Source: an uncultured Psychroserpens sp.
Lineage (GTDB): Bacteria; Bacteroidota; Bacteroidia; Flavobacteriales; Flavobacteriaceae
Assembly (NCBI RefSeq): GCF_947492715.1
Contig: NZ_CANLNS010000007.1
Coordinates: forward strand, 140,591-204,590
DNA: 64,000 nt
Direction of reading: 5' to 3'
Position 1 is the stretch's first letter; each line of letters opens with the position of its first letter. Positions 53,791 to 57,497 of this stretch are shown one piece after another. The notes beneath the pieces were generated by a model that was not told the origin of the DNA, made no database searches, and saw nothing but the letters and a program-made list of their open reading frames with translations. The position numbers and the translations under genes were made by a program.

Positions 53791-54675
53791 ATGAGCTATC
53801 ATATTTATACCGAAAACAATAAAGAATTAAAATTATCTGATATACTTCAAAGCGAGCATTTACCAACTAATGTAGCGATTGCTTTTGGACAATTAGAAGA
53901 TGAAATCATAAATGGTTACTCTAAACTATATATACCTCATCAATCTTCAAGAGGAGTCGTGATTACTAAAGATGATACCGAATATGACATCGAACTAAAT
54001 ATAGGCTCAAGTAAAGAAGATTATCATCTTGCGTCCAAAATTGCTTTAGCTCTAGGTACTTTAAATAACTCCAAAATTTCTCCTGAATTTGATGAGAGCC
54101 TGTCACTCAATGAATTTGAAAAAAAATATGACACAGCTTGGGCTGAGGAAAGTCAATCGATAGGTGTAAGTACATTGATAAGCATCGTAAAAGAAAAAAG
54201 CCCTATAGTAAAGATTAATGGTTGTAAACGAGGGTATTACTTTGGTGAAAACATGATAAATGAATTCTCTATAGATAACCCAGACGAAAAGCAGTTTACA
54301 GAACGTTTAGTTGAAAACATAAGACGCATTCAGTTCATTGAAGATTTAAATGAAGACCTAAATATCCCTAGTTTAATGGAAGCTGATTTCCCTGAAGGTG
54401 TAAAAACATTTATAGTTGTTCCTCCAGAGTTTAAACTATTACTTTTAAAATCAGACTTCATAGTTTTAAATGATAATAAAAATGTACTTAAAGTAGAGGC
54501 TAATAAATTTATTGATATTCTTAATACAAAGTCCATGCTCGAAAGACTAGACGAAGAACAATACATAATGAACCCAATTAAAACTAGTGACTATGCCGAG
54601 TTAATGGCCTTGTTTAACAAGGAACAACCGCAGAAAGAAAAAAAGAACAAAAAAAGCTGGAAATTTTGGAAATAG
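53791..54675 (+). CDS. uncharacterised 294-aa acidic protein with cationic/aromatic C-terminal tail
   Basis: Long clean ORF with no signal peptide and no motif I recognise. It ends in KEKKNKKSWKFWK. Lies 83 nt upstream of the helicase gene on the same strand. Confidence 0.7.
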   Translation: MSYHIYTENNKELKLSDILQSEHLPTNVAIAFGQLEDEIINGYSKLYIPHQSSRGVVITKDDTEYDIELNIGSSKEDYHLASKIALALGTLNNSKISPEFDESLSLNEFEKKYDTAWAEESQSIGVSTLISIVKEKSPIVKINGCKRGYYFGENMINEFSIDNPDEKQFTERLVENIRRIQFIEDLNEDLNIPSLMEADFPEGVKTFIVVPPEFKLLLLKSDFIVLNDNKNVLKVEANKFIDILNTKSMLERLDEEQYIMNPIKTSDYAELMALFNKEQPQKEKKNKKSWKFWK

Positions 54676-54758
54676 CGTCATGTCTAATACCATACAAAAA
54701 GTTCGATATGAACCATAAATAAAGGCCTTACTATCATAAAAAATTAAACTAAATACCT

Positions 54759-57497
54759 TTGCGAGAATTTCCTAAGAACATAAGATTTAAATACAATTGG
54801 AGAGCCTATCAGCATCGCGTATTAGAAGACTTACAAAGTCATTTAGAAGATTCGCATTTACATATAGTGGCACCTCCAGGATCTGGCAAAACAGTTTTAG
54901 GCCTAGAGGTTGCTATCAGACTAAACAACCCTACATTAATCTTAGCGCCTACTATTGCTATTAGAAATCAATGGATACAACGCTTCTGTGAATTATTCTT
55001 ACAAGTAGAAACCACACCAAACTGGATATCAAGAGATATCAGAGCTCCAAAATTTTTAACAGTTTCAACCTATCAAGGTTTACATGCAGCCTGTAATGAC
55101 ATTGTCATAGACATGGATGATGATGATGATGATGATGATGATGATAAAGACTATATTGAAGACCGTCATGAACTTGTCATTTCAGACACCAATATGGTAA
55201 CGATTGTCAATAATTTAAAATCTCAAGGCATCAAAACCATTATTGTTGATGAAGCACATCATTTAAAAAATGGGTGGTGGTATACACTCAATAGTATTAA
55301 AGATCAATTAGACCCAATAATAGTAGGTTTAACAGCAACACCTCCTTACGATGTTACCGTTAATGAATGGCAGCGCTATTTAGATTTGAACGGACCTGTA
55401 GATACAGAGATTTCTGTTCCTGAACTCATCGTTGAAGGTGATTTATGCCCTCATCAGGATTATGTATATTTTACCCTACCGTCAAAGAAAGAAAAACAAG
55501 GCATTGCCGCGTTTAGAACGCGTATTTCTGAATTATTCGAAAGCATTAAAACAGACGAGACACTTATTCGAGCCATAGAAAATCACCCTATTTGGTTGCT
55601 TCCCTCTCTTCATGTTGATTGGATTTACACTCATCTTTCCTACTATTCCGCCTGCCTCATATTTTTAAATTCAAACGGAAAGAAGATCTCAAAATCCCAT
55701 TTGGATATCATTGATGATAAACCGGTTAGTATTCCTAGCTTTGATTATGATTGGATTGAAATTCTCTTAGAATTCTATCTCTTTAGTAAGGATGATTATT
55801 TTGAAACCTTTGCAGATCACAGAAAACAACTAGAAAATCGCTTAAGACAAGGTGGCGCTTTAGAACGTAAACGTGTTCATTTCTCTAAAAATAAAAAAAT
55901 GTCTCGCTTTCTAAGTTCTAGTATCAGCAAGCTACAAGGTATAAAGAACATTATAGAGTTTGAATACAATCAGCTAGATGATAAACTAAGGTTGGTTGTT
56001 CTATCAGATTATATAAGAAAAGAGTTTATAACCAATACCTCTGAAAACAAACTTGAATTAAATAAACTTGGTGTTATTCCCATTTTTGAAACGTTAAGAC
56101 GGGATAATCCTAATCATATAAAACTAGGCGTGCTAACAGGTTCTCTAGTTATCATTCCAAAAAAAGCGCTTTCAGCATTTCAAGAAAAAGCGCAACAACT
56201 TAATATTTCTAATATAAAATGGAACACACTTGATTATGATGGTAATTATATTCTCATTAATCAAACCGAAACACTAAAACATCATATTGTACATATAACT
56301 ACTGAAATTTTCCAAAACGGTCACATAGAGGTTCTTGTTGGAACAAAGTCCTTACTGGGTGAAGGTTGGGATGCTCCTGCCATTAATACTCTCGTACTCG
56401 CTACATTTGTAGGTTCATTTGTACTATCAAATCAAATGCGTGGTCGCGCTATTAGAACTCAAAAAAGTAACGATTCTAAAACGGCAAATATTTGGCATTT
56501 AGCCTGTATGGATACATCATCGTCATCAAATGGTGATGATTTTGATGTTTTAAAACGACGCTTCAGAAGTTTTGTTGGAGTTTCCTTTAGGGAAAAATCG
56601 AGCATTGAGAATGGTCTTGATAGACTTCAGATACCTGCAAATATTAACAGAAAAAGAACAGTCAATCAAACAAATGAAACTATGTTTGCTCTAGCGGCCA
56701 ATCGTAATGAAATTAAACAACGATGGAAAAATGCTATTGCATCTGGCGTCACATTAATAGAAGAAATTAAAATTCCTTATCGTGAGGAGCGTCCATATAA
56801 AATAGCAAAGTCGGTGTCCTATTATAAAACCATCTCTAGTATTGGTGCAGCTATTATTTTTGGGTTAATAATATCTTCTGGATGGTTCCTTGAAGTCGTT
56901 TTTAAAATACTGCCACAGCATATTAGCTCATCTGGAGCGACCTTAGTTATAACTGCGATTAGTATGTTAGGGTTTTTATTGTTTGGAGGTCTCGCTTATA
57001 AACATTTACGATTATACCTTAAGTATCGAGATCTTTCAAAAGACATACACAATATTGGTAAAGCCTTGTTGGCTTCATTGGTACATGCCAATTTAATTCA
57101 CACGCCCATTGAACATCTAAAAGTGGTCTCAACAAAAAATGAATATGGCGCTGTATTTTGTCATTTAGAAGGCGGTTCAACCTTCGAGAAATCAACATTT
57201 ATCAACGCGTTATATGAGATTATTTCTCCAATAGACAACCCTAGATACGTGATTATAAGAAAGCATGCTTTTTTTAATATGTATCAGCAAAAAGATTATC
57301 ATAGTGTGCCAAATCAACTTGCTAAGAACAAAAGACTAGCAGCGTATTTCAAAACGCAATGGCAAAAGCATGTTGGTCATTGTAAGCTCGTATTTACCAG
57401 AACTCCTAAGGGTAGAAAACTACTTTTAAAATCGAGAATAAAATCTTTAGCCGCACAATTTGAAAATAAGATTGAGCATGTTAATAAATGGCGATAA
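54759..57497 (+). CDS. SF2 DEAH-box (ResIII-type) helicase with poly-Asp insert, C-terminal TM hairpin and ~165-aa extra domain
   Basis: APPGSGKT (motif I), VDEAHH (II), LTATPP (III), GEGWDAPAINT (V) and QMRGRAIR (VI). Hydrophobic helices at about aa 692-715 and 726-747. TTG is the only available start, since an in-frame stop lies 9 nt upstream. Confidence 0.8.
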   Translation: MREFPKNIRFKYNWRAYQHRVLEDLQSHLEDSHLHIVAPPGSGKTVLGLEVAIRLNNPTLILAPTIAIRNQWIQRFCELFLQVETTPNWISRDIRAPKFLTVSTYQGLHAACNDIVIDMDDDDDDDDDDKDYIEDRHELVISDTNMVTIVNNLKSQGIKTIIVDEAHHLKNGWWYTLNSIKDQLDPIIVGLTATPPYDVTVNEWQRYLDLNGPVDTEISVPELIVEGDLCPHQDYVYFTLPSKKEKQGIAAFRTRISELFESIKTDETLIRAIENHPIWLLPSLHVDWIYTHLSYYSACLIFLNSNGKKISKSHLDIIDDKPVSIPSFDYDWIEILLEFYLFSKDDYFETFADHRKQLENRLRQGGALERKRVHFSKNKKMSRFLSSSISKLQGIKNIIEFEYNQLDDKLRLVVLSDYIRKEFITNTSENKLELNKLGVIPIFETLRRDNPNHIKLGVLTGSLVIIPKKALSAFQEKAQQLNISNIKWNTLDYDGNYILINQTETLKHHIVHITTEIFQNGHIEVLVGTKSLLGEGWDAPAINTLVLATFVGSFVLSNQMRGRAIRTQKSNDSKTANIWHLACMDTSSSSNGDDFDVLKRRFRSFVGVSFREKSSIENGLDRLQIPANINRKRTVNQTNETMFALAANRNEIKQRWKNAIASGVTLIEEIKIPYREERPYKIAKSVSYYKTISSIGAAIIFGLIISSGWFLEVVFKILPQHISSSGATLVITAISMLGFLLFGGLAYKHLRLYLKYRDLSKDIHNIGKALLASLVHANLIHTPIEHLKVVSTKNEYGAVFCHLEGGSTFEKSTFINALYEIISPIDNPRYVIIRKHAFFNMYQQKDYHSVPNQLAKNKRLAAYFKTQWQKHVGHCKLVFTRTPKGRKLLLKSRIKSLAAQFENKIEHVNKWR
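55116..55145 (+). repeat. perfect (GAT)10 trinucleotide microsatellite encoding Asp10
   Basis: Read directly: atg gat x10 aaa. It lies inside the helicase between motifs I and II. Confidence 0.97.

Follow-up and report, generated by a model that had tools for sequence, protein, structure and literature searches.

The question raised by this locus is whether two adjacent genes, encoding a protein of 294 amino acids (aa) and a 912-aa superfamily 2 (SF2) helicase, form a two-gene system. The genes are located in a stretch of 64,000 nucleotides (nt) from an uncultured Psychroserpens sp. (contig NZ_CANLNS010000007.1, positions 140,591 to 204,590), which is called the window hereafter and to which all unprefixed coordinates refer. 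Both open reading frames (ORFs), with all their features described below, are on the + strand: the 294-aa ORF starts with ATG and occupies positions 53791-54675, the 912-aa ORF starts with TTG and occupies positions 54759-57497, and the gap between them is 83 nt. A GNAT gene is located 5' of the pair at 53268-53756 (Pfam Acetyltransf_7/1, E-value ~1e-16), and trmD (57635-58312) and rplS (58920-59270) are located 3' of the helicase. The original prediction, made from the sequence alone, had described the same layout, with same-strand genes 83 nt apart, GNAT upstream and trmD-rplS downstream, and this was confirmed by the ORF positions and domains. It had also proposed that the pair is a system resembling Hachiman; the gene-level descriptions stood, whereas this central claim did not. 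Both genes are real: each has homologues of corresponding length and a confident AlphaFold model, with a predicted local distance difference test (pLDDT) of 87 for the tail region of the helicase and 90 for the small protein.

Co-occurrence of the genes in other genomes

The comparison included 85 loci for relatives of the helicase and nine loci for relatives of the small protein, the latter from Kordia, Mucilaginibacter and metagenomes. In the tblastn searches, not one of the 85 helicase loci contained the small gene, nor did any of the nine small-gene loci contain the helicase, and the adjacency of the pair is unique to this window among all of them. Homologues of the small gene elsewhere adjoin an AsnC-type regulator or other unrelated genes. 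Likewise, the clustering of ORFs from ~80 helicase loci revealed no conserved partner of the helicase on either side beyond genus-level synteny, the neighbours otherwise being singletons, and in other phyla they were equally miscellaneous.

The nearest relative of the window is a 4-Mb metagenome-assembled genome (L012), which is syntenic with it. The identity to the window is 99% for the GAPDH-like gene, 90% and 96% for genes of 245 and 217 aa, 87% for GNAT, 82% for the helicase, 96% for trmD and 100% for rplS, and a 111-aa gene and the IDH gene are also present. The L012 orthologues of trmD and rplS bear the domains PF01746 (tRNA_m1G_MT) and PF01245 (Ribosomal_L19), respectively. In L012, the order is GNAT-helicase-trmD, the TTG start of the helicase lies 18 nt past the GNAT stop codon, and the small gene is absent. 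In the window, the spacer between the two genes (54676-54758, 83 nt) ends with ~23 nt, directly ahead of the helicase start, that match the GNAT-helicase spacer of L012 in a local alignment. The arrangement fits a putative insertion of ~1 kb in the lineage of the window, or a deletion in L012, bearing the small gene alone.

Since the two genes adjoin in this genome only, the claim of a two-gene system is not upheld. It had been set beforehand that the lack of linkage in other genomes would count against the system, and elsewhere the genes are unlinked: co-occurrence was found in none of the 85 and none of the nine loci, the syntenic L012 has no small gene, and no neighbour is conserved. Judging from these sequence comparisons, we are highly confident that the two genes are not a conserved pair. 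Only in this lineage did the 294-aa gene, a DUF4299-related orphan, arrive between GNAT and the helicase.

The ~1-kb segment with the small gene has two junctions (53757-53790 and 54736-54758), and each of them resembles the single L012 spacer at 7981-8003 (~23 nt). A target-site duplication around the small gene was considered and is not relied on, the sequence being AT-rich and the alignment scores weak. Two further kinds of candidate partner were rejected. GNAT, uracil-DNA glycosylase (UDG), NUDIX and EamA genes each recur two or three times or in one genus, which is consistent with chance, and a variable upstream specificity subunit was dismissed because the ORFs upstream of the helicase are singletons without relation to one another, lie on either strand and are often housekeeping genes.

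Domain architecture of the helicase

By its sequence, the 912-aa protein is an XPB/Ssl2-like SF2 motor (COG1061, Pfam ResIII) encoded by a stand-alone gene, and it is not an XPB orthologue. The ResIII score reached 74.1 bits against a cut-off of 22.5. Motifs I, II, III and VI are present and invariant over 30-64 homologues in the alignments; APPGSGKT was located at aa 38-45, DEAHH at aa 164-168, TATPP at aa 192-196 and QMRGRAIR at aa 559-566. The profile search of PDB identified archaeal XPB/Rad25 as the only solved relatives (E-value 2e-9, N-terminal lobe), and the NCBIfam equivalog NF045503 gave 34.8 bits against a cut-off of 610, with only aa 11-109 aligned. In support of the TTG start, the N-terminus is conserved among the homologues, and L012 uses the same TTG.

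RecA-like lobe 1 (54759-55355, aa 1-199) contains the ResIII match (aa 12-196, E-value 1.6e-20), with Walker A at 54870-54893, DEAHH at 55248-55262 and TATPP at 55332-55346. It also contains an acidic loop of 18 aa (55110-55163, DMDDDDDDDDDDKDYIED), which includes ten consecutive Asp codons. The composition of this loop, not its sequence, is conserved across phyla, as the loop is found in the same place in Thorarchaeota, Armatimonadota and Paenibacillus, while it is absent in a Rhodobacterales clade; it could be a DNA-mimicking autoinhibitory element. The lobes are separated by a family-specific domain (55356-55958, aa 200-400), which is covered by no Pfam model and carries the near-invariant sequence PPYDV...EW.RY...GPVD.EISVPEL..GDLCPHQD (alignments A1 and A3). 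RecA-like lobe 2 (55959-56498, aa 401-580) contains motif VI at 56433-56456 within an invariant GTKSLLGEGWDAP...SNQMRGRAIR block, and its score against Pfam Helicase_C (20.2 bits, aa 515-567) is just below the cut-off of 23.5.

Lobe 2 is followed by a post-helicase domain (56499-56828, aa 581-690) composed of helices and strands, in which R622 and W656 are conserved. The complete SF2 motif set, the two hydrophobic helices after it and the basic C-terminal domain of ~165 aa without a recognised motif had all been read correctly from the sequence; what had been taken for a linker of ~90 aa is in fact this folded, conserved domain of ~110 aa, modelled by AlphaFold with a pLDDT of 82-95.

The hydrophobic helical hairpin (56829-56996, aa 691-746) is a putative membrane anchor; the term 'membrane-anchored' in the original prediction expresses a reading of the hydrophobicity. 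Its hydrophobic segments, aa 693-718 and aa 726-747, showed Kyte-Doolittle peaks of 2.06 and 2.10 and Hessa free-energy sums of +1.3 and -0.7, respectively. The AlphaFold model of aa 580-912 (m549ab44df76c), built on 64 diverse sequences, reached a pLDDT of 87.4 and a predicted template modelling score of 0.82, and the hairpin helices were modelled at aa 680-717 and 724-755 with a pLDDT of 65-79. No other stretch is as poorly conserved in sequence as the hairpin, yet its hydrophobicity is kept. The Hessa sum of helix 2 has a median of 1.45 and does not exceed 3 in 52 of the 64 sequences; in the window copy, helix 1 is the most hydrophobic in the family, and both helices pass. The hairpin was found in Sphingomonas, Bacillota, Verrucomicrobiota, Acidobacteriota, Armatimonadota and Thorarchaeota. 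Based on the hydropathy proxies (Kyte-Doolittle and Hessa) and on the modelled helical hairpin, true membrane insertion is probable, and the two domains flanking the hairpin are both predicted to be cytoplasmic because basic residues cluster at its base. A literature search for membrane-anchored or XPB-like transmembrane helicases returned nothing relevant. An assignment to the SLATT-type two-transmembrane effectors was rejected, since the match to NCBIfam SLATT_4 (E-value 0.37, 10.6 bits against a cut-off of 55) is noise.

The Rhodobacterales clade mentioned above consists of 778-aa proteins with neither the hairpin nor the acidic loop, which keep the helicase (31% identity) and the C-terminal domain (34% identity, E-value 2e-15). 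Its members, on plasmid p2 of Tritonibacter mobilis (L097:5968-8304) and in the homologues P0310 and P0316, are a natural 'soluble' variant for comparison.

The protein ends with a basic alpha/beta domain (56997-57494, aa 747-912), named here the NPRY domain and modelled with a pLDDT of 95-98; the isoelectric point (pI) of the C-terminal 166 aa is 10.0. The Foldseek search with the C-terminal region gave no match (best E-values 0.65 in PDB and 0.05 in BFVD), and the profile searches of PDB sequences and Pfam were empty. The residues Y830 (in NPRY), P851, W868, T880, G885, R886, L889, R893 and W911 are invariant across phyla. No acidic residue of the domain is invariant across phyla, so that a binding domain is favoured over a metal-dependent nuclease. 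A nuclease was rejected on this ground and on the lack of any fold, sequence or profile match in PDB, BFVD and Pfam; the function of the Arg/Lys/Trp-rich domain is more likely the binding of nucleic acid or of a partner than cleavage.

Distribution and mobility of the helicase family

The searches yielded more than 4800 full-length homologues of the helicase. With aa 580-912 as the query, 948 clusters were obtained at an E-value <=1e-3 among 1.84 billion representative proteins, most of them full-length proteins of ~860-980 aa. The shorter ones look like gene fragments, and the tail therefore appears to be fused to the helicase wherever the protein is complete. Members are present in Bacteroidota, Bacillota, Alphaproteobacteria, Verrucomicrobiota, Acidobacteriota, Armatimonadota and Thorarchaeota, with full-length relatives in Paenibacillus, Sporosarcina and Bhargavaea, in Sphingomonas, Polycladidibacter and Rhodobacterales, in Lentimonas, Sulfotelmatobacter and Armatimonadota, and in Thorarchaeota. 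The distribution is sporadic: at least 163 matches were confirmed over 185,579 species with one genome each, and the best 80 loci of these were retained. All named members are called 'DEAD/DEAH box helicase family protein', and the JGI name is 'superfamily II DNA or RNA helicase'; these names are generic and no characterised family name is among them. The helicase very probably represents a stand-alone family with a fixed architecture of ~900 aa.

A phage origin was rejected, as the 'Bacteriophage sp.' matches (MT836806 and MT838455) are unverified faecal contigs and MT836806, the one of them that was examined, carries bacterial housekeeping genes. In the latter (L102, 8.7 kb), the helicase homologue overlaps a NUDIX gene by 4 nt and is accompanied by a CAAX protease and an amino-acid ABC transporter; the contig looks like a bacterial chromosomal fragment and not a phage.

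One Bacteroidota clade of the helicase shows a DNA identity of 80-90% across classes that is limited to the gene, from ~15-50 nt before the start to ~10-140 nt past the stop, and many metagenome contigs that carry the helicase scarcely exceed the length of the gene. In Sphingobacterium sp. R2 (CP142884), an integron-like array of same-strand units split by attC-like repeats of 145-190 nt was found at L002:2951-11965, with the helicase gene at L002 6001-8721 (CP142884 290469-293189). The repeats have imperfect inverted ends (...CGTTTGGCGCAATGGCGG ... CCGCCACTGCGCCAAGCG.CAAAACGTTA) and fold as long hairpins. The cassettes of the array encode the helicase, a Zn-dependent phospholipase C-like protein and a pair of a cyclase and an S_4TM protein resembling the cyclic-oligonucleotide-based anti-phage signalling system (CBASS), and a divergent 254-aa Xer/IntI-like recombinase that falls below the integron-integrase cut-offs lies beside it. 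When an nhmmer profile of the repeats was applied, copies turned up on the flanks of the helicase or next to it in L015, L018, L020 and L021, and the cassette feature was found only in the relatives L002/L003, L015, L018, L020 and L021. The copy in the window was rejected as an integron cassette: the same profile found no attC-like repeat in the 64 kb, and no recombinase is nearby.

In the same Sphingobacterium genome, an FtsX-like gene is enclosed by two perfect direct repeats of 95 nt (L002:1306-1400 and 2612-2706), which have a tRNA-like T-arm (GGTTCGAATCC) and adjoin rplS and the recombinase. They may be the att sites of an integrated element.

Some other helicase loci adjoin type I restriction-modification genes, transposases, Fic or a group II intron. 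In 13 Chryseobacterium species (L064, L071-L093), the helicase occupies a fixed position downstream of a DUF4241 gene and a UDG-superfamily gene, and its median identity is 67% versus 93% for the adjacent PaaZ-like gene. The comparison of the window with L012 shows a like divergence, with 82% for the helicase and 96-100% for the flanks.

Possible role of the helicase

On balance, we favour the reading that the two genes are independent and that the helicase is a stand-alone, membrane-tethered DNA translocase, plausibly directed against foreign DNA. The hairpin would dip into the cytoplasmic membrane, with the motor and the C-terminal domain both staying in the cytoplasm. The motor would spend ATP to translocate on, or to open, double-stranded DNA in the manner of XPB-type enzymes, and the basic C-terminal domain would engage nucleic acid or a partner; the whole would be an accessory function acting on DNA near the membrane. 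Such an accessory role, maybe against foreign DNA, is suggested by the sporadic cross-phylum distribution, the fast divergence and the cassette mobility beside a CBASS-like cassette. Interference with incoming foreign DNA would be the most likely single role, and we put it forward tentatively.

Several observations weigh against this reading. The 123 immediate neighbours from ~62 loci are mostly housekeeping genes (MFS, beta-lactamase-fold, GNAT, RelA/SpoT, GreA and peroxiredoxin), and only a handful of them match PADLOC; the copies in other phyla are likewise found among ordinary genes, and the premise that the genes might sit in defence islands is accordingly weak. Within a genus, the synteny of the helicase is stable, an unusual trait for a defence gene; its own PADLOC matches are weak and partial (type IV DinG 8e-7, PbeA 1e-6 and Cas3b 6e-4), and it carries no recognisable effector domain. 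As for the tether, helix 1 is weak in most homologues, with a median Hessa sum of 4.15 and a sum of 3 or less in only 13 of the 64 sequences. Moreover, membrane insertion is inessential to the family, because one clade lost the hairpin entirely. As for the independence of the genes, a terminator-like hairpin was sought in the 83-nt spacer and none was found, and because the genes adjoin with no terminator between them, co-transcription and a lineage-specific functional link are allowed in this genome.

The helicase might instead be a housekeeping accessory, retained in certain lineages for DNA repair or maintenance, e.g., to process damaged or membrane-attached DNA, with no role in conflict with mobile elements. 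The housekeeping surroundings in most loci, the synteny in the 13 Chryseobacterium species directly downstream of a UDG-superfamily gene, the 4-nt overlap with a NUDIX gene in the gut contig and the XPB-like core, XPB being a repair helicase, are all in agreement with it, and the absence of any effector domain keeps it alive. However, the distribution is sporadic and not universal (at least 163 matches over 185,579 species), the divergence is much faster than that of the neighbours, one clade has spread horizontally in the form of a cassette, with a CBASS-like one next to it, and no repair partner or nuclease is conserved next to the gene. We therefore regard this explanation as possible but rather unlikely.

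A similarly doubtful alternative concerns the hairpin, which might be buried and serve oligomerisation, e.g., as a four-helix bundle in a dimer; the helicase would then be soluble and multimeric. The modelled helices of 32-38 residues exceed the span of a bilayer, most homologues have a segment 1 of only marginal hydrophobicity, and the loop between the helices frequently bears a positive charge; the best Foldseek match, which is insignificant, is the dimerisation and histidine phosphotransfer hairpin of a histidine kinase with an alpha/beta domain, and one clade manages without the hairpin. On the other hand, segment 2 is strongly and consistently hydrophobic and poorly conserved in sequence, like transmembrane helices, the segments of the window copy have Hessa values of +1.3 and -0.7, and the basic residues cluster at the hairpin base.

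A two-gene anti-phage system like Hachiman, with the small protein as its sensor or effector partner, is very improbable: the common strand, the distance of 83 nt with no predicted terminator, the putative membrane-associating elements in both proteins and the occasional presence of helicase homologues in mobile or defence regions favour it, whereas the adjacency occurs only here among the 85 + 9 loci, the nearest relative has the helicase alone at the site, no HamA/HamB or other PADLOC match is convincing, and the small protein has no significant fold match (Foldseek E-value 0.11).

The two-gene system as originally posed is a chance adjacency and has no significance of its own. What remains is a very large and generically labelled helicase family that combines an XPB-like motor with a probable cross-phylum membrane hairpin and a confidently modelled C-terminal domain unmatched in PDB and BFVD. 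If these proteins are inserted in the membrane and act on DNA at the envelope, they would be a new type of membrane DNA motor. The helicase could also be a new kind of barrier, formed by one gene, that keeps out phages, plasmids or transforming DNA, and the clade found on cassettes is a compact construct ready for testing. A bolder reading, which we consider improbable, is that an undescribed broad class of membrane-integrated XPB-like translocases, from Bacteroidota to Asgard archaea, serves as single-protein immunity or surveillance against entering DNA, with an unmatched C-terminal fold and integron-type spread in Bacteroidota, and that the DUF4299-like protein with its membrane-seeking Trp/Lys tail was maybe newly recruited here.

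The 294-aa protein

The product of the small gene (53791-54675) is an acidic protein of pI 4.9 encoded by a stand-alone gene. Thirteen homologues with 40-60% identity were found among 5.8 billion clustered proteins, and the length of the family (~295-310 aa) is that of DUF4299. The protein itself has no Pfam, PADLOC or NCBIfam match (0 families of PADLOC and Pfam at an E-value <=1). PF14132 (DUF4299) is matched by five of the 13 homologues, the best E-value being 3.4e-9, while the window copy has no match to it at an E-value <=1; the homologues P0124, P0126 and P0130 also carry precomputed PF14132 labels. As these relatives match PF14132, the small protein is, on sequence grounds, probably a distant branch of the DUF4299 family.

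The protein ends with a basic Lys/Trp tail (54634-54672, KEKKNKKSWKFWK) of pI 10.2, and the terminal WW(K/Q)FWK is kept in all 13 family members together with other invariant positions (alignment A2). The tail may bind the membrane, as inferred from its composition. In the AlphaFold model, which reached a pLDDT of 90.4, residues 281-294 are disordered (pLDDT <50). The fold search with Foldseek against PDB gave nothing significant, nuclease or other, the best match being PA4090 with an E-value of 0.11. The earlier description of an acidic protein with a Lys/Trp tail, no recognisable motif and no nuclease signature thus agrees with the pI values, the lack of a library match and the lack of a HamA/DUF1837 or significant fold match.

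The only literature found on DUF4299 describes a truncated DUF4299 protein in a variable region of the type VI secretion system of Campylobacter jejuni, for which an adaptor role was speculated (PMC8285248). The small protein shares the length range of DUF4299 (PF14132); it differs in having no PF14132 match of its own and no type VI secretion context.

Genes downstream of the helicase

Two TAnnTTTG boxes were observed downstream of the helicase, at 57609-57616, ~19 nt 5' of trmD, and at 58839-58846, ~74 nt 5' of rplS. TAnnTTTG is the -7 promoter consensus of Bacteroidota. The box of trmD is also kept in L012, which suggests that trmD has its own promoter right behind the helicase. As a promoter signal across the window, the boxes were rejected because they are not enriched (95 found against 98 expected), and a copy that overlaps the start codon of the helicase is uninformative.

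An ORF of 111 aa, hydrophobic and located between trmD and rplS (58330-58665), has a counterpart of 76% identity at the same position in L012, for which no Pfam family is recorded. Judging from its sequence, it is an unannotated small membrane protein in a housekeeping cluster.

Comparison with known systems

The locus resembles Hachiman, which consists of the nuclease HamA (DUF1837) and the helicase HamB, in that the gene of a large SF2 helicase is preceded, on the same strand, by that of a small protein of unknown function. It differs in that neither HamA nor HamB was matched in PADLOC, the small protein is DUF4299-related, and the adjacency is not conserved in the other genomes examined. 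Hachiman and other known defence systems were rejected, as scanning both proteins with PADLOC, Pfam and NCBIfam yielded no convincing sign of one; the PADLOC check proposed with the original prediction returned no family for the small protein at an E-value <=1 and only weak matches for the helicase, and thus no known system.

FtsK/SpoIIIE are hexameric RecA/AAA+-like pumps with N-terminal transmembrane domains, and ComFA is a soluble, peripherally associated PriA-like helicase. The helicase would share with them the concept of an ATP-driven DNA motor at the cytoplasmic membrane; it differs in that its hairpin follows an XPB-like core, and there is no sequence relationship.

Integron gene cassettes can carry defence systems (PMC8618304; bioRxiv 10.1101/2024.07.02.601686). 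Likewise, attC-like imperfect inverted repeats delimit the helicase as a separate unit in Sphingobacterium sp. R2 and in several metagenome contigs, whereas the copy in the window is chromosomal, between GNAT and trmD, and has no such repeats.

The closest likeness in motor class is to XPB/Ssl2/Rad25 (COG1061; ResIII and Helicase_C), with which the helicase shares the Walker A, DEAH, TAT and Q..GR..R motifs. A Bax1-like nuclease partner was not among the clustered neighbours of the helicase. Unlike XPB, the helicase of the window adds to the motor an inter-lobe domain of ~200 aa, an acidic loop, a hydrophobic hairpin and an unrelated C-terminal domain.

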